Source of the DNA: a virus
Taxonomy: Duplodnaviria > Heunggongvirae > Uroviricota > Caudoviricetes
IMG/VR virus record: IMGVR_UViG_2648501839_000008
DNA length: 64,000 bases
Strand: one strand, 5' to 3'
This document shows positions 1,950-63,954 of the stretch, piece by piece. The notes below the pieces were generated by a model. That model searched no databases and was not told the DNA's origin. It worked only from the letters and a program-made list of their open reading frames with translations. Each line of letters starts with the position of its first letter. Position 1 is the stretch's first letter. A program made the position numbers and the translations under genes.

Positions 1950-3644
1950 TTAATTATTAAGCAATCTGCTCACACGTAGTTTGTTAAGACTTGATCTAGA
2001 GGCCAGTTTCGTTAATGCACCTATTGCTTTATTCGTGATTTTTTGCTGTTCTTCTGTTAGTTCTTGCATACTTTTGAATCTGAGCAACCCCTTTCTCACT
2101 AAATCCAAAGCATCCTGATTGCGGGATAGTATCCACTTTAAATAATCATCTTCAGAGAAACTGTTAAGATATGCTATGTCACTATGATTAAATTTGCCTT
2201 CAATTATTTTGTATAAAACATTCTCTAAATTAGTCTCTTCAGGCTTCTTATCCATCAATTTTTTTTGAATTAGCAGACCTAACTTTTCGTTACCAAATAT
2301 CTCTACATACAAATTCCGAAAAGCAGTATAAGCATCATCTTGGCTAACAAAGGCATCTGCATATGCCTCTATATAACTATCACAATCAATCTCCAATCTA
2401 TTTAAGATATCAATCAAGCCTATGAAGTGAGCAACAGGTATGTGTGAAAGATTGTCGTTAATTACACATTTTATCTTAGAAATAAACTCAGATTCATTGT
2501 CCTTGAATGAGTCACTAAAAATATCCCAAACATTGTTAACATCACATAAAGCCTTGTGTTCTTTATATTGTTTATTTTTTTCTTCTATTATACCTCGAAT
2601 ATTGCTTTCAGTAGAAAGATAACCATTCTTGAGATAAAAATCTATGTCATCATCGAAAGCAATTTCCGCTCGTTCATAAATAACATCAAGACTATTAATA
2701 AATGAATATACAGAATCATCCTTTTTATCATCTAACATGTAATCAAATACATGTATGTTTTTAATTGATTCTTTAAACAAGGCATAATCAACACCTGGAA
2801 CACCAGAATAGTAAACCACTGAAAACAGAACCAATCTATTGATAAAACTTTCTCTAACCTTATCCTCTGCCAAGCTTAGCTCATTCCTAAGATTAACCAG
2901 AGATGTTTTTATTTTATTTAATATACGGATATTTTTAATGCCTAAGTCATTTGCTAAGACTTTTAACAAAAGAAAATCAGAATCAGTTTCATAAAAAACT
3001 TTACGTAAGTTCTTCTCAGGCGTAGGATCGTATTTTATTTCGACATCAATTACTTTTTCTCTGTACTCTAAAAACTGTTTTTTTGCAGTTTCATCATGTA
3101 AATTATCTTCATTTAAAATTAGAACAACTTTGCAACCTTTTCTTCTTGCTAATTCATCAATTACCCCCATAATTTCTTTAACTTCTAGCGAATTACCTTT
3201 TCTTTCAACATCATCAATACAAACCAAATAATTATTAACAAATTTATACTCAAGAGATGACAGCAGGTTATCTGTTTTGAACCCAAAAAAATCGTTCTTT
3301 CCGAAATGTATTAAAAATTTTGACAAGGAGTTGTATTTCAACCATCCCCAAAACCCATTTCTATAACGAATCATAGTTCGATCCGTTTCAGATAAAATTA
3401 GTTCTTTATATTTCTTTTCATTAATTGGTGTGGCACAATGATAAAGAGCTTTTTTAATATCACCAATAGAGTTAACCCCAAACAAAGAAACATACGAATA
3501 TGCATTAAAATCTAATCCTTCAGAATGCTTAGTATAAAAACTATTCCAATAATGAGTTTTACCAACGCCCCAATCTCCTTTTATGACGGCAACCCGATGA
3601 TCTGAAACTAGAAAATTTTTTAGAAATGATTCTATCGATTCCAT
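1950..3644 (-). CDS. KAP-family P-loop NTPase (candidate defence or abortive-infection protein), AT-rich cargo gene
   Basis: N-terminal Walker A VIKGDWGVGKTH, Walker B-like LVCIDDVERKG about 140 aa later, long helical C-terminal region; AT-rich codon usage unlike neighbours; probable ATG at 3644 with AAAGGA RBS (track start 3653 is TTG). Confidence 0.55.
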   Translation of the reverse strand: MESIESFLKNFLVSDHRVAVIKGDWGVGKTHYWNSFYTKHSEGLDFNAYSYVSLFGVNSIGDIKKALYHCATPINEKKYKELILSETDRTMIRYRNGFWGWLKYNSLSKFLIHFGKNDFFGFKTDNLLSSLEYKFVNNYLVCIDDVERKGNSLEVKEIMGVIDELARRKGCKVVLILNEDNLHDETAKKQFLEYREKVIDVEIKYDPTPEKNLRKVFYETDSDFLLLKVLANDLGIKNIRILNKIKTSLVNLRNELSLAEDKVRESFINRLVLFSVVYYSGVPGVDYALFKESIKNIHVFDYMLDDKKDDSVYSFINSLDVIYERAEIAFDDDIDFYLKNGYLSTESNIRGIIEEKNKQYKEHKALCDVNNVWDIFSDSFKDNESEFISKIKCVINDNLSHIPVAHFIGLIDILNRLEIDCDSYIEAYADAFVSQDDAYTAFRNLYVEIFGNEKLGLLIQKKLMDKKPEETNLENVLYKIIEGKFNHSDIAYLNSFSEDDYLKWILSRNQDALDLVRKGLLRFKSMQELTEEQQKITNKAIGALTKLASRSSLNKLRVSRLLNN

Positions 3645-60032: not shown

Positions 60033-60053
60033 TTAAGTAAGTATTTACCTATC
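60033..60053 (-). promoter_or_regulatory. Class-B palindromic site
   Basis: ttaagtaagtatttacctatc. Confidence 0.4.
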
Positions 60054-61737
60054 ATTTAACGCGTTTGAAAACGTATACGCTGACTGTGATCCCTGTGTCT
60101 TCAAACTCGTTGGTAAACGACTTCCCTCTGGCATAAACGTAATTATCCATCGTCATCCAGTCCAGTATTGGCGCAGTGCCCGGCAATACTGCTACAAGAC
60201 GCCCGCCGACTTTCAGATGCCCCAGCGCAGCCATCGTGTGCTCTCTATGACGACCAAGCGAGTACGGCGGGTTCATAACGATTTTGTCGAACTGATAACC
60301 TGCGTTGTCCTCAGACCACTTTATGAAGTCGCAGCAAATCGTGTTCGTATACCCTTTTCCACGCAGGATATCAGCGAAGAGAGGTGCGATTTCTATGCAG
60401 GTAACATCTTCCAGATCGGCGTTAATATAGGCCAGAAGATCCCCACGTCCGGCTTGAGGCTCCAGCAGCTTCTCACCAGACTTCAATTCAGTGGCTCTGG
60501 CAACGTACTCAGCAATCAAGCGTGGGGTAGGGTAGAACTGGTGTGATTTAGTATCCGGTATTAAACCGGTAGCCACAATCGTATTTAGCGTATGGCCGAT
60601 GTCATACGGGAACTGCCAGTGCTTTTTCTCCTGCACGCCGCCAATGAAGCTCAGTGTGCGCTCAAGCTCTTCCACCTGCGACTTCTGGAGAGCTGAATCA
60701 GAGAAGTACCATACGCCTTTGTCTTTGCTCAATCGCCCGTCACGAAGCGCAGTGCGAACCGGCACAGAGATCGTCTTCTGGATTAACCCGAACTGCTTTG
60801 GTGCCCGTGTTTTTGGCGCAGTTCGGCATGGCGCGGGGATTGCAGCAGGCATACTGTAAGCCAGCACCTCATTCAACTTCCAGGCCACGTCAGGATGTAT
60901 TTCAAAGTGAACGTTGCCGTTCTTGAACATCTTCACGCGCATCAGATTTCCATCGACGTTCATCCAGTCACCGGTCTGGCAGTCGTTTGCCCTATACGCA
61001 GCTGATAGCACCTCAGCAGTGCGGTTGATGGTAATAAATTCTTTGTGCGCGAAGAAATGAAGCAAGACACGCAGATCGTCGATGTAGTCCTCTTTGCGAT
61101 AGTTCACGCTAACGCTGTCCCGCCAGAAATCAGAAATGCAGTCAGCGATTATCAGCCGCTCGCTGAAACCGTTTGTCTTATTTGTCTTGTGCGCAGGACT
61201 CAGCGCCTTAAACAAGCCATACACGCGCTCAGAGAGATATTTGTGCCTGTCATTCAGCAAATTAAGCATCGTGGGTATGACCGTTTCTGCTTTGAACTCC
61301 GGTACACCAACGAACTCTTTAACCTTCATCTGGTAGCCGGTTCTGTCAGTTTTGATGACTTCCTGTTTGCCCTCTATAAACTGCTCGCGCCACTCATCTC
61401 GACGGGAAGCTGGCATGATCAGCAAAACGTTAGTCATGTCCGTGACCTTCCTCCAGTACTCGGCCCAAATATTCTGTTTCACCCATTCCAGATCGACTTT
61501 ATCCAACCAACCTCGATTTAAACGCGAGCGATCTTCATCTGGTCGATGGTTTAGTCTCAGCAGGCGATTAATCATGTTGTGGCGTTCGTCGCCATAAACG
61601 AAGTCGTGTACCTGATACATGAAGGCGATCTCTTTCTCGCACTCGGCCACGATTTCGTGGATGACATTCATTTCCTGACGATAGTCGATAGCCGTGTTTG
61701 AGCTGGCATCGTCGATGATAGAAAGGGCTGTATTCAT
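60052..61737 (-). CDS. N6-adenine DNA methyltransferase with large N-terminal domain
   Basis: Motif I-like LEPQAGRGDLL and motif IV NPPY in the C-terminal about 200 aa; 561 aa. Confidence 0.65.
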   Translation of the reverse strand: MNTALSIIDDASSNTAIDYRQEMNVIHEIVAECEKEIAFMYQVHDFVYGDERHNMINRLLRLNHRPDEDRSRLNRGWLDKVDLEWVKQNIWAEYWRKVTDMTNVLLIMPASRRDEWREQFIEGKQEVIKTDRTGYQMKVKEFVGVPEFKAETVIPTMLNLLNDRHKYLSERVYGLFKALSPAHKTNKTNGFSERLIIADCISDFWRDSVSVNYRKEDYIDDLRVLLHFFAHKEFITINRTAEVLSAAYRANDCQTGDWMNVDGNLMRVKMFKNGNVHFEIHPDVAWKLNEVLAYSMPAAIPAPCRTAPKTRAPKQFGLIQKTISVPVRTALRDGRLSKDKGVWYFSDSALQKSQVEELERTLSFIGGVQEKKHWQFPYDIGHTLNTIVATGLIPDTKSHQFYPTPRLIAEYVARATELKSGEKLLEPQAGRGDLLAYINADLEDVTCIEIAPLFADILRGKGYTNTICCDFIKWSEDNAGYQFDKIVMNPPYSLGRHREHTMAALGHLKVGGRLVAVLPGTAPILDWMTMDNYVYARGKSFTNEFEDTGITVSVYVFKRVK

Positions 61738-61878: not shown

Positions 61879-62445
61879 TTAGAGTGCGTATTGCGTTTTG
61901 TGCGGCTGCTTATTCAAGTCATGGCGATGCGTGAGCTCCCGCATCATGTCTTCAAGGCGACTCTTTGTGTCGTCGAGCTGGTCGGCCATTGCACCTAAAA
62001 GCTGGCGAACGGCCATCGGATCGTCGCTGTTTAGTGATGGCATTTTATAACCTGCTTTAGAAGACATAAGGTTGATTGCAGACATCAACATCGTTAGAGA
62101 GGATTTAAGCCCGGCAATTTCACGATCTTTGCTGGCAATAATCGTCTCACTTTTGTTACCGTCATCAGTTCCTTGAGTCTCGCTCACCATATCCAAAGTC
62201 GCTTGCAACTTATCAGCTCTCTCTTTTTCAGCAAGGTAATGAACACCGAAATGGTGTGCCAAAGCTACAATCTGAGTTGGCTCTTCAAAGGTGGAATTAA
62301 AATTAAGTATTGTAAACAGTCTCTCAAATATGGAAACGTCTTCTATTCCTCGAAGAATGGATAACATTTTGACAAGTTCATTAGCATCCATTTCTTCGAA
62401 TAGGGCGTTTTGTTCATCAGCTATTGCTTTGCATTTCTCGCACAT
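61879..62445 (-). CDS. Hypothetical protein (188 aa)
   Basis: ORF track. Confidence 0.35.
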   Translation of the reverse strand: MCEKCKAIADEQNALFEEMDANELVKMLSILRGIEDVSIFERLFTILNFNSTFEEPTQIVALAHHFGVHYLAEKERADKLQATLDMVSETQGTDDGNKSETIIASKDREIAGLKSSLTMLMSAINLMSSKAGYKMPSLNSDDPMAVRQLLGAMADQLDDTKSRLEDMMRELTHRHDLNKQPHKTQYAL

Positions 62446-62463
62446 GTGTTTTCCTTAATGCTT

Positions 62464-62499
62464 AAACAAGTTGTTTTCTTATTGGTTTTATTGTGATGT
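62464..62499 (-). promoter_or_regulatory. Class-A site
   Basis: aaacaagttgttttct + ttggttttattgtgatg. Confidence 0.5.
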
Positions 62500-62584
62500 G
62501 GCATATAAGGGGAGCAAGCTAAACGTAAAGGTGCAAACTCTCTATTTCGGTCAACGAAACACAAGGGCCAAATGGCCCTTGTCA

Positions 62585-62743
62585 TTAACACTTTGCTTTA
62601 CGAACTAACGGATAAGCGAAGTAGATCGCCAAACCAATGAGGACGCCATCAGAAATGACAGACATCATCTTTCCCGTAAAATCCACCAACACCGCCATCA
62701 CCAGAAGAGCAATGACGATCACAAGCCGGAATCTCTCAAGCAT
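62585..62743 (-). CDS. Small hydrophobic peptide (52 aa, two predicted TM segments), not in the ORF track
   Basis: Hand translation MLERFRLVIVIALLVMAVLVDFTGKMMSVISDGVLIGLAIYFAYPLVRKAKC; ATG overlaps the TerB-like stop (TAATG). Confidence 0.35.
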   Translation of the reverse strand: MLERFRLVIVIALLVMAVLVDFTGKMMSVISDGVLIGLAIYFAYPLVRKAKC

Positions 62744-63168
62744 TAGAGATAAGCATCCAGTGACAACTGAAGCGCCTGGGCGATCTTTTTCAGTGCCTGC
62801 TCTTCTTGTTCACCAATGCCGTCCTGATCGGCAATATCAAGGCACAGACACAGAACATCGACCGCCTCTGGAGTACCCGCAATATCAGACAGCTCACGAA
62901 TAGCCTGTGCATTAGCAGAACGAGGGGACGCTTCGTAACGAGCACGGATATTGGCGCTCATTTGGGCAATTTCACCAGCAAACGGAGAAAACGCAGGCAG
63001 AGCTGCAATTGTCTTCTCAAGAATGGCAATTTCTTTTGCGTCACATGTGCCGTCGGCATAGGAGATCATGTACGCGCCCCACACGGTGGCCTCAACCGCA
63101 TCACGGTTCTCCATTTTTTTGACTTCGATAACTGCTTTACGAGTTTTCTTTTTGAAGAAACCTAACAT
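62743..63168 (-). CDS. TerB-like domain protein
   Basis: 141 aa with TerB-like paired acidic helices (...YADGTCDAKEIAILE... and ...DIADQDGIGEQEEQALKKIAQ...). Confidence 0.45.
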   Translation of the reverse strand: MLGFFKKKTRKAVIEVKKMENRDAVEATVWGAYMISYADGTCDAKEIAILEKTIAALPAFSPFAGEIAQMSANIRARYEASPRSANAQAIRELSDIAGTPEAVDVLCLCLDIADQDGIGEQEEQALKKIAQALQLSLDAYL

Positions 63169-63191
63169 GTGTTTTCCTTTTGTTATTTGTC

Positions 63192-63208
63192 AAAACAAGT
63201 TGTTTTCT
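63192..63208 (-). promoter_or_regulatory. Class-A site
   Basis: aaaacaagttgttttct. Confidence 0.5.
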
Positions 63209-63261: not shown

Positions 63262-63450
63262 TCAGAAATAACCAAGTACCGAACCGACTGGAAAAATAAA
63301 AATCCCAACTACACGAGCCAAGGTCATGCCAGCCTGAAACTGGAGATCGCCAGAGCAAACAAGTTTTATAATGTTCGATACCCAACCGGCGGCCATGAGG
63401 GCAAGAATTGCCAGCCAAATTTTTCCAAAGTGATTTGAAAACCAGTTCAT
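63262..63450 (-). CDS. Small membrane protein (62 aa)
   Basis: ORF track; two hydrophobic segments. Confidence 0.35.
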   Translation of the reverse strand: MNWFSNHFGKIWLAILALMAAGWVSNIIKLVCSGDLQFQAGMTLARVVGIFIFPVGSVLGYF

Positions 63451-63698
63451 ACAACCGCCTTAGTCACAGCATGATCCTGAGTAACTGGATGAACTTGAGG
63501 TATCGCATCCACCGCCATCCCATCCAGAGTGACAGGACGCTCCACTGGAGTGGTGGTAATTGTCGTCGACGAAGGTGTGGTGATGGATGAATCCGGCATC
63601 AAAAGGCTCTGACCGGCTGGAACGGCTACCGTCGCCAGTGAAACTATAATGAGAACGTAGGCCATTGGTTTCAGCCTCTTTCTTTGAAAATTTTCCAT
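63447..63698 (-). CDS. Small secreted/Thr-rich protein (frame uncertain)
   Basis: ORF track; coupled (ATGA) to the downstream gene; overlaps 63460-63954 in another frame. Confidence 0.25.
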   Translation of the reverse strand: MENFQRKRLKPMAYVLIIVSLATVAVPAGQSLLMPDSSITTPSSTTITTTPVERPVTLDGMAVDAIPQVHPVTQDHAVTKAVV

Positions 63699-63954
63699 TC
63701 GAACTGTCCTTGTTGTTTTTCTCCTTCACTAAAGGCCGTGCATTTTTCGCTTCGCGTGAAGAACCAGAGGCAACAATCGCCCCCACGTTCGCAACAACTG
63801 ACGCTTGATTATCTAAACGTTCATTCAGCAACCGAACGGTAGTCTCTAGTTCATCAAGACGTGACATAACACGACCGCTAAATAATTCGGCCAAAATTTG
63901 ACGTAAAGAACGAGGACGTTTAGTTACAGAAGTGAAATAGGTTTGACGTGCCAT
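63460..63954 (-). CDS. Hypothetical protein (frame conflict with 63447-63698 over the 3' half)
   Basis: ORF track; the N-terminal about 85 codons are unique to this frame. Confidence 0.3.
   Translation of the reverse strand: MARQTYFTSVTKRPRSLRQILAELFSGRVMSRLDELETTVRLLNERLDNQASVVANVGAIVASGSSREAKNARPLVKEKNNKDSSNGKFSKKEAETNGLRSHYSFTGDGSRSSRSEPFDAGFIHHHTFVDDNYHHSSGASCHSGWDGGGCDTSSSSSYSGSCCD

Follow-up and report, generated by a model that had tools for sequence, protein, structure and literature searches.

A TerB-fold gene coupled to a small DUF3927 gene in an SSU5-like phage-plasmid, almost certainly the tciA-tciB accessory cassette known from phage P1

The closest described relative of the gene pair considered here is tciA-tciB of phage P1, which belongs there to a set of three genes, tciABC, situated between the C1-controlled ban promoters and ban, with C1 operators upstream and all on the same strand. 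Transcripts from the tciABC region are seen in P1vir infection and TciA peptides are contained in P1 virion preparations (PMC9024508), and the set is non-essential by CRISPRi (PMC10695390) and absent from about half of the P1 subgroup-1 elements (PMC9603915). TerB, the namesake of the fold, is described in the literature as membrane-associated or amphitropic and a TerC-TerB complex has been reported (PMC11003894, PMC12054061), while E. coli DjlA carries an N-terminal transmembrane helix followed by a TerB-like domain and a J domain (PMC11709261). What TerB domains sense or do is a question dating from the first description of the ter operons. A duplicated acidic A-D-G-x5-E motif, thought to bind metal, defines the TerB family.

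The window, that is the whole 64,000-nucleotide stretch of the virus record IMGVR_UViG_2648501839_000008, holds on its minus strand a tciA-like gene (62743..63168, stop codon TAA at 62745..62743 included) for a 141-residue cytoplasmic TerB-fold protein and, directly 3' of it, a tciB-like gene (62585..62743, stop codon TAA at 62587..62585 included) for a 52-residue small hydrophobic protein of the DUF3927 family. The sequence shows them sharing a single base in a TAATG at 62741..62745, the TAA of tciA occupying 62745..62743 and the ATG of tciB 62743..62741. An initial annotation had proposed just such a one-nucleotide overlap, a TerB-like first gene and a peptide identical to the one encoded at 62585..62743, and all three proposals hold, the TerB assignment by a match of TciA residues 33-136 to Pfam TerB PF05099 at 31.5 bits (cut-off 24.4). 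TciB matches Pfam DUF3927 PF13064 over residues 4-50 at 46.6 bits (cut-off 25) and phrog_1470, named 'TciB-like', at E=1.4e-21, the pair as a whole being matched by PHROGs families 632 and 1470. The same annotation took the small ORF to be missing, and it was indeed absent from the gene track then used, but RefSeq lists this very protein as WP_000893470.1, a 'DUF3927 family protein', both in numerous E. coli genomes and in the E. coli plasmid pECOH89, which is 99.9% identical to the window and has both genes in its RefSeq annotation. As an overlooked gene the pair does not stand, given Pfam DUF3927, phrog_1470 and its routine RefSeq annotation; it is already known, having been named in the P1 genome annotation and assigned to families by Pfam and PHROGs; RefSeq marks it in hundreds of plasmids and prophages, and in phage Cyrano it is labelled P1 TciA-like and TciB-like.

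It is near certain from sequence comparison that the pair is the copy, in an SSU5-like phage-plasmid, of the P1 tciA-tciB accessory cassette, so that the resemblance to TerB loci of phage-plasmids suggested at the outset turns out to be one of homology. P1 TciA has the same length as its counterpart here (141 aa) and is 79% identical to it; P1 TciB is 39% identical (E=1e-10) and shares the VDFT...SDG...P motif; the one-base stop/start overlap is the same in both, although written TGATG in P1 and TAATG here; and both elements are phage-plasmids. The settings differ, in that the P1 pair lies among tRNA genes and within the C1-repressed ban (dnaB-like helicase) operon, whereas the window is devoid of tRNA genes and its pair is found among small units sharing a palindrome on an SSU5-like backbone. 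P1 also has a third small gene overlapping tciB, the 35-residue tciC, which the window does not have, since tblastn with P1 TciC found it only in P1-like loci. A 56-residue ORF with a GTG start (62421..62591) was considered as the tciC equivalent and rejected, because it crosses the terminator hairpin and the regulatory region of the next gene and is without similarity to TciC. Two ORFs that run across the pair on the plus strand (62637..62903 and 62806..63165) were likewise set aside as unconserved antisense frames, public annotations all being on the minus strand.

Whether the 52 codons are a gene at all was a legitimate question for a frame that begins without a Shine-Dalgarno sequence and for which the literature searched yielded no direct protein or ribosome-profiling evidence. 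Conservation was followed in 176 loci, 96 retrieved with the TerB protein and 80 with a profile of the small peptide; a contig scan queried with one protein had yielded no more than 11 close relatives. A coupled ORF of about 50 residues with the same motif lies directly 3' of the TerB gene in 96/96 of the first set, one copy being disrupted, and a TerB gene lies directly 5' of the small ORF in all 80 of the second, so that adjacency is kept in 176/176. The tciB frame is intact in 175 of these loci despite saturated synonymous divergence, the 55 distinct peptide variants have an invariant motif in common, and median dN/dS is 0.24 for TciB as against 0.04 for the TerB gene. At the junction, which is always an overlap in the 96 loci, five sequence forms are used (TAATG in 53, GTGA in 25, ATGA in 10, TGATG in 7 and TTGA in 1). 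A DUF3927 profile search gave 141 clusters, mostly of stand-alone proteins and chiefly of 45-65 aa. Because of the curated Pfam and PHROG families, the unbroken adjacency, the five forms of overlap and the dN/dS of about 0.24, the small ORF is, on the comparative evidence, a genuine gene that encodes a hydrophobic peptide and is coupled to the TerB-like gene, as first proposed; the notion of an untranslated chance frame is effectively refuted by conservation and retains only a negligible probability.

The junction and the flanks bear on how the cassette is expressed. A Shine-Dalgarno AAGGA is read from the sequence 6 nt 5' of the tciA ATG (63175..63179, minus strand), in a AAGGAAAACACATG context that recurs before the next downstream gene at 62443-62456, while in 90/96 loci the 17 nt leading up to the tciB start contain no Shine-Dalgarno-like 4-mer. 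The genes are translationally coupled by their stop/start overlap, and tciB would be translated by re-initiation there. Three nucleotides past the tciB stop begins an intrinsic-terminator-like hairpin identified by a terminator scan (62552..62582, minus strand), its stem at 62582..62561 followed by GTTTCGTTGA; the RNA of 62540-62600 folds at -21.7 kcal/mol (z=-5.0 against shuffles). Each of the 77 distinct cassettes has a GC-rich hairpin 3' of tciB; the stems are of at least seven different sequences, and the median MFE is -18.9 versus -11.3 in control windows inside tciA. Upstream, 24 nt 5' of the tciA start, lies the palindrome AGAAAACAACTTGTTTT (63191..63207, minus strand) with the core AAACAA-N-TTGTTT, a motif matched 23 times when both strands are counted against 0.34 expected and preceding at least 12 minus-strand gene starts in the window by 4-35 nt. 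At five or more of the gene starts a GATAAT hexamer resembling a −10 element is placed 13 nt upstream of the palindrome, in several cases with TGn in front. By its pattern the palindrome is a putative operator or promoter-associated site common to many genes of the window, although a generic sigma-70 scan, which found no promoter upstream of tciA, speaks against this. The palindrome-bearing units of the window are marked by AGAAAACAAnTTGTTT. The cassette would thus look like a self-contained unit, with its regulatory palindrome and Shine-Dalgarno before tciA and its terminator hairpin right after tciB, and tciAB may be switched on together with the other genes bearing the same palindromic operator.

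For TciA the all-alpha TerB fold is found and the duplicated acidic motif is present as a putative metal-binding site, with D39, G40, E46, A113 and E122 invariant, and D116 and G117 nearly so, in ten phage TerB proteins of 35-79% identity. Its match to TerB-superfamily structures is at the level of the fold only, and a single-sequence search of PDB sequences with TciA gave nothing meaningful; NCBIfam gave no useful match for either protein. TciA is probably a soluble protein of the cytoplasm, acidic and TerB-folded, with an unstructured basic tail at its N-terminus. TciB is very hydrophobic (GRAVY 1.36) with conserved acidic residues in or near the putative membrane region, and by hydropathy residues 7-22 and 29-47 form two hydrophobic segments between basic N and C termini, a distribution of charge that fits an N-in/C-in orientation; R6, F22, S28, D32 and P45 are invariant and D21 nearly so. 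It would accordingly be a small inner-membrane protein, for which the simplest form is a helical hairpin whose two ends are cytoplasmic and whose turn is the conserved polar D-F-T-(S/G)-(K/R)..S...D-G. The double-transmembrane structure proposed in the initial annotation is plausible as such a hairpin, although the AlphaFold2 model, a single unbroken helix spanning residues 2-50 (pLDDT 92), counts against it.

The size of TciB, its two hydrophobic segments and its basic C-terminus recall small holins, a likeness drawn from what is generally known of class II holins, and lambdoid phages carry the cassette between their Q antiterminator and holin/endolysin genes. A lysis-timing accessory might then be envisaged, in which TciB would be holin- or antiholin-like and TciA would adjust the timing of membrane permeabilisation. 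These lambdoid carriers however possess a holin of their own immediately 3' of the cassette, which in the window, P1, D6, N4-like and jumbo phages lies away from the lysis genes; Pfam and PHROGs place the peptide only in DUF3927/TciB-like families and in no holin family; and knock-down of P1 tciABC is without a plaque-formation defect (PMC10695390). A role in lysis timing is consequently judged very improbable.

The distribution of the cassette speaks to what else it might do. Matches to the pair occur in about one in ten complete E. coli genomes, and the cassette is found also in P1-like, D6, lambdoid and N4-like phages and in more divergent versions in one jumbo and one Pseudomonas phage, the named carriers being P7, D6, the N4-like FSL SP-076 and SP-058, the jumbo phage ChrisDB and Pseudomonas phiK7B1. 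In Pseudomonas phage AF no DUF3927 partner can be recognised for the TerB homologue, and in Vibrio phage MS02 a TerC/Alx membrane-protein gene adjoins TerB and there is no DUF3927 gene. The cassette appears to be a mobile accessory unit, often in prophages, rather than a core phage function. The product name 'tellurite/colicin resistance protein', used by RefSeq and in the P1 annotation, implies lysogenic conversion, the pair conferring tellurite or colicin resistance on the host; TciA is after all homologous to TerB, and a review suggests that the operon shields hosts from tellurium salts and phage (PMC11652158). The name was nevertheless assigned by homology only, and ter resistance needs TerC and TerD-type proteins, TerC-TerD being reported as the minimal functional unit (PMC12054061). 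None of TerC, TerD, TerE, TerZ and TerA is annotated within 6 kb either side of the pair in pECOH89, and none of the neighbouring ORFs in the window matches TerC or TerD in Pfam. Carriage by lytic phages also ill suits a trait of benefit to the host, and conversion is held to be improbable.

A sensor joined to a membrane effector deserves a more serious hearing, although it too is on balance unlikely. Here TciB would damage membranes, as a pore-like or Hok/holin-like peptide acting in abortive infection or superinfection exclusion, and the TerB protein would restrain it, or trigger it on sensing a membrane perturbation by another phage or a colicin, in the manner supposed for TerB in Dionysus, Bunzi and Shango; this corresponds to the first half of the 'membrane-damaging effector or anchor' offered by the initial annotation. 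TerB domains do occur in validated defence systems, Dionysus pairing its TerB-like protein with a four-transmembrane pore-forming toxin, and ter operons have been connected with inhibition of phages and resistance to colicins; the conserved acidic residues in or near the membrane of so short and hydrophobic a peptide, and the frequent carriage of a mobile accessory cassette in prophages, are in keeping with an effector as well. But neither TciA nor TciB matches any PADLOC defence model at E<=1 (Dionysus, newer than the PADLOC library used, was compared by description only), and the cassette is present in strictly lytic N4-like and jumbo phages, for which an altruistic suicide module makes little sense. 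In P1 the position of the cassette, on the same strand between the C1-controlled ban promoters and ban, means that it may be repressed in the lysogen and not expressed. Gene order and re-initiation without a Shine-Dalgarno tie TciB synthesis to the translation of TciA, a coupling that we would expect of a complex more often than of a restrained toxin.

Indirect evidence leans to TciB as a partner or anchor rather than a toxin, because of the stoichiometric stop/start coupling, the strictly lytic carriers, the lack of a PADLOC match and the occurrence in the Vibrio phage of TerC-TerB without DUF3927. By analogy with TerC-TerB and with the transmembrane helix of DjlA, TciB as a dedicated anchor would bring TciA to the inner membrane, and the TciA-TciB complex would, as an accessory function, condition or monitor the state of the envelope or of the ions in the infected cell. 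We infer in this way a physical interaction of the two proteins, their topology, the timing of their expression and their physiological role, and consider the inner-membrane partner or anchor about evenly poised between being right and wrong. Some observations argue against it. In the N-in/C-in orientation the most conserved residues of TciB, being in the putative turn, would face the periplasm and so point away from a cytoplasmic TciA. Near-identical TciB proteins stand beside TerB proteins only about 35% identical (P1 vs P7, SP-076 vs SP-058), which argues against a tightly co-evolving interface. Among 1.84 billion representative proteins no genuine TerB-DUF3927 fusion was found, the few long matches being frameshift or chimeric artefacts, so that support for physical association from this side is wanting, and the partnerless TerB of phage AF also counts against it. 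P0221, a protein of 196 aa with both domains, was examined as a natural fusion and arises from a frameshift in the P1 pair on a single contig.

A bolder and unlikely proposal is that TciA-TciB is a minimal self-sufficient module of TerB plus membrane protein that serves as an anti-defence or exclusion device and not in 'tellurite resistance'. Lytic and temperate phages alike would then use it to keep the membrane of the infected cell energised or intact against membrane-targeting abortive-infection effectors, superinfecting phages or colicins. If so, these two genes, about 200 codons in all, would offer the easiest system in which to learn what TerB domains sense and do. The pair is in any event a compact experimental handle on TerB biology and not a new discovery; what the present analysis adds is that the TerB and DUF3927 genes are inseparable in the 176 loci, that their overlap couples them with no ribosome-binding site between, and that the cassette, closed by a terminator hairpin, moves as one unit among very different phage types.

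Set beside the known systems, tciA-tciB resembles the ter (terZABCDE) operons in that a TerB-fold cytoplasmic or amphitropic protein is encoded beside an integral membrane protein, with the differences that TciA is a divergent TerB and that TciB, at about 50 aa and with at most two membrane segments, has no TerC-family match in Pfam. DjlA offers the likeness of a short hydrophobic anchor holding a TerB-like domain at the cytoplasmic face of the inner membrane, as is proposed for TciA, although in DjlA the anchor is in the same polypeptide and a J domain provides an output, whereas tciAB encodes its putative anchor in a second, coupled gene and has no domain for output. Dionysus (DinA/DinB/DinC), Bunzi and Shango also combine a TerB-like with a membrane protein, and TerB is proposed there for membrane surveillance; the membrane component of Dionysus, as a four-transmembrane toxin, is nonetheless unlike TciB, and where these systems are host-encoded, with three genes or with helicase or ATPase partners, tciAB is a two-gene cassette carried by phages, lytic ones included.

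The two genes are near certain to be a pair of the P1 tciA-tciB type. The TerB-like gene tciA occupies 62743..63168 (-) and encodes 141 amino acids, and the small ORF tciB, at 62585..62743 (-), encodes 52; both ORFs were read from the sequence. At their TAATG junction the tciA stop codon TAA (62745..62743) and the tciB start codon ATG (62743..62741) have one base in common. The coordinates, peptide and one-base overlap given in the initial annotation match the window sequence exactly, and its TerB-like label for the first gene is borne out by a Pfam TerB match of 31.5 bits (curated threshold 24.4), alongside a match to phrog_632 'tellurite resistance' (E = 4.8e-63). The small ORF had been called unannotated, but was absent only from the gene track then in use: RefSeq has it in the E. 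coli plasmid pECOH89 as WP_000893470.1, 'DUF3927 family protein', and calls the TerB gene 'tellurite/colicin resistance protein'. The peptide matches Pfam DUF3927 (46.6 versus 25 bits) and phrog_1470, 'TciB-like inhibition of cell division or resistance to colicin' (E = 1.4e-21). The window region is 99.9% identical to pECOH89 over 2.2 kb, is matched as closely by many pECOH89-like non-mobilisable plasmids of ~110 kb, and is 95-97% identical to phages Cyrano, CMS-2020a and PhiR41_1; these plasmids and phages are SSU5-related phage-plasmids, and the Cyrano record itself names the pair 'P1 TciA-like' and 'P1 TciB-like'. Matches occur on plasmids and chromosomes in 554 of 5,426 complete E. coli genomes, 215 of them over 80% or more of the query, with both genes routinely annotated. 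The gene pair is real, but it is already named, annotated and widespread in phages.

Conservation of the pair, which the initial annotation had set as a check, was found from both directions. Retrieval with the TerB protein gave 96 loci, made up of 80 viral contigs, 11 genomes and 5 annotated records. In each of them an ORF of about 50 amino acids with the same motif stands directly 3' of the TerB gene, and the junction is an overlap throughout (TAATG in 53, GTGA in 25, ATGA in 10, TGATG in 7 and TTGA in one). The converse search, by a profile of the small peptide, placed a TerB gene immediately upstream and on the same strand in 80 of 80 loci. Since retrieval relies on conserved peptide patterns, these loci are biased to Enterobacterales phages. 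The sole disrupted tciB among the 176 loci is that of locus L088 (about 3420-3600), where the peptide turns into unrelated sequence after ...VEFTGR, as after an insertion or rearrangement breakpoint. The idea that tciB is a chance, non-coding ORF is refuted by this conservation and keeps next to no probability; that its frame stays open at saturating divergence is strong evidence for coding. Median dN/dS (Nei-Gojobori) is 0.24 for tciB versus 0.04 for tciA, values that are rough, since synonymous saturation affects many of the comparisons.

A Shine-Dalgarno sequence, AAGGA, lies 6 nt upstream of the tciA ATG, and none precedes the tciB ATG in the window sequence. In 90 of the 96 TerB-retrieved loci the 17 nt leading up to the tciB start contain no Shine-Dalgarno-like 4-mer, and so tciB is most likely translated by ribosomes that end tciA and then re-initiate. 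The 141 family clusters drawn from 1.84 billion representative proteins contain no genuine TerB-DUF3927 fusion; the candidates P0221, P0269, P0303 and P0329 proved to be frameshifted or chimeric calls from single contigs. Two distant DUF3927-like proteins, P0357 and P0385, are extended at the C-terminus by ~40 amino acids.

An AlphaFold2 model of TciA, built from a 48-homologue alignment, is a confident six-helix bundle (pLDDT 90.5) with which Foldseek agrees, and residues 1-20 are predicted to be a basic, unstructured tail. The net charge of -5 is made up of +6 in that tail and -11 in the body, no segment is hydrophobic enough for a membrane span by hydropathy, and a duplicated A-D-G...E motif is kept in phage homologues of 35-79% identity. 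TciB is very hydrophobic (GRAVY 1.36), with hydrophobic segments at 7-22 and 29-47 that flank a conserved polar stretch, and with basic residues at both ends. In 55 distinct TciB peptides R6, F22, S28, D32 and P45 are invariant and D21 nearly so.

The cassette is closed by a GC-rich hairpin of 9 bp that begins three bases after the tciB stop and is followed by GTTTCGTT in the terminator scan; its folding energy is -21.7 kcal/mol (z = -5.0 versus shuffles). Every one of the 77 distinct cassettes has a GC-rich hairpin 3' of tciB; the stems fall into at least seven unrelated sequences and the median MFE is -18.9 kcal/mol versus -11.3 in control windows, and so it is the predicted terminator function that is conserved and not its sequence. 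A palindrome, AGAAAACAACTTGTTTT, lies upstream of tciA; its core AAACAA-N-TTGTTT, which usually continues to AGAAAACAAnTTGTTT, has 23 matches in the window (both strands counted) versus 0.34 expected, at sites near 1003, 4759, 35419, 35444, 40406, 44560, 45045, 45096, 45999, 46483, 47656, 49697, 49748, 58842, 61750, 62464 and 63193. It lies 4-35 nt upstream of at least 12 minus-strand gene starts, and in at least five places (44560, 45045, 46483, 49697 and 61750) a GATAAT -10-like hexamer, in several cases preceded by TGn, is found 13 nt upstream of it. A generic promoter scan upstream of tciA gave nothing convincing. The palindrome looks like a putative operator common to a set of small phage-plasmid promoters; on that reading tciA-tciB would be one among many small transcription units under common regulation. 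An exact copy of the palindrome stands before tciA and another before the gene downstream of the pair (188 amino acids, phrog_5508), and the two genes have the identical ribosome binding and start context AAGGAAAACACATG (62443-62456 and 63166-63179, -), suggesting a duplicated regulatory cassette. PHROGs classes both families as moron (accessory), and the tciA-tciB unit looks like a mobile accessory cassette of this kind.

A further small hydrophobic protein, of 62 amino acids (63262..63450, -; phrog_6006), is encoded immediately 5' of the regulatory region of tciA; it comes after a 164-residue phrog_10411 protein whose gene is overlapped in another frame by an 83-residue ORF that RefSeq does not annotate (listed frames 63262..63450, 63447..63698 and 63460..63954, all -). 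Two units downstream of the pair, 60052..61737 (-) encodes 561 residues that include a DUF4942 domain (E=1.6e-20) and, at the C-terminus, a weak signal resembling N6-adenine methylases; this may be an accessory gene related to methyltransferases. In the pSLy3-like phage-plasmid pangenome 'DUF3927 family' and 'tellurite/colicin resistance' genes are the conserved flanks of an antibiotic-resistance insertion locus (PMC9600943), and so the pair may border a plastic region of the element.

Eight distant phage TerB homologues were checked, six at 35-41% identity and that of FSL SP-076 at 63%. P7, D6 and the N4-like Salmonella phages FSL SP-076 and SP-058 have a clear TciB-like ORF directly 3' of the TerB gene; in Pseudomonas phage phiK7B1 a recognisable one (LDSVSR..S..DG..WPLLKK) lies 34 nt downstream, and Erwinia jumbo phage ChrisDB has a hydrophobic ORF of 59 amino acids, without the acidic residues of TciB, that RefSeq also takes as TciB-like. 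Pseudomonas phage AF has a TerB homologue without a recognisable partner. Vibrio phage vB_VpaP-MS02 (L183, 75-1623) has no DUF3927 gene, and a TerC/Alx membrane protein directly upstream of TerB may be an alternative membrane partner. Near-identical TciB peptides stand beside very different TerB proteins in P1 (L003) versus P7 (L177) and in FSL SP-076 (L179) versus FSL SP-058 (L180), the TerB proteins of each pair being 35% versus 63-79% identical to that of the window. TciB is therefore not tied to a single TerB subtype, and it appears that the TerB gene has been swapped by recombination with tciB, plus tciC in P1 and P7, left in place. Lambdoid phages carry the pair between the Q antiterminator and holin genes; a role in lysis timing would suit that context, but it fits in lambdoid phages only and is very improbable.

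As to function, TciB would be the inner-membrane partner of a cytoplasmic TciA, coupling would have the two made in fixed proportion, and their complex may condition or monitor the infected cell's envelope as an accessory function. This mechanism is given about an even chance. It draws on the obligate pairing and coupling, on TerC adjoining TerB in the Vibrio phage, on the presence of the cassette in lytic phages and its non-essentiality in P1, and on two precedents: DjlA, with a TerB-like domain behind a TM anchor (PMC11709261), and a TerC-TerB complex reported at the inner membrane (PMC11003894, PMC12054061). TerB has also been described as membrane-associated or amphitropic. Pointing against it are the AlphaFold2 model of TciB, one long helix and not a hairpin, the lack of genuine fusions, the tolerance of TciB for very different TerB partners, and the location of its most conserved residues in a putative periplasmic turn, away from TciA. 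TerB components occur in the defence systems Shango, Bunzi and Dionysus, the last pairing a TerB-like protein with a pore-forming toxin; a module of the sensor-effector, exclusion or abortive kind, with TciB damaging the membrane, is nonetheless rather unlikely: neither protein has a PADLOC match, and a lytic phage would have little use for it. Genuine resistance to tellurite or colicin, as the database names have it, is improbable without TerC and TerD-type proteins. The new points are incremental: strict pairing, overlap coupling without a Shine-Dalgarno sequence, cassette boundaries with a terminator hairpin conserved across lineages, and the shared palindromic putative operator in the window's phage-plasmid. 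As a compact system of two genes, the cassette lends itself to testing the function of TerB domains.

In P1 tciA, tciB and tciC (141, 54 and 35 amino acids) are consecutive on one strand, each with a one-base overlap into the next; they lie between ban and its C1-operator-controlled promoters, with tRNA genes around them. All three scored non-essential by CRISPRi (PMC10695390), and the operon is absent from about half of P1 subgroup-1 phage-plasmids (PMC9603915). Transcripts are seen in P1vir infection, and two TciA peptides detected in purified P1 virion preparations, set aside as non-structural (PMC9024508), show at least that TciA is made during lytic growth. The window differs in having no tciC, for which tblastn matches are confined to P1-like loci, and no tRNA gene anywhere. 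Such genes, mainly Thr(tgt), Asn, Gly, Arg(tct) and Ile/Met(cat), often flank tciA-tciB elsewhere (L003, L004, L177, L178, L181, L182 and 16 of 50 sampled loci), in P1, P7, D6, lambdoid, jumbo and Pseudomonas phages. P1 TciA is 79% identical to the TerB protein of the window, and P1 TciB is 39% identical to its peptide (E = 1e-10), the VDFT...SDG...P motif being common to the two peptides.
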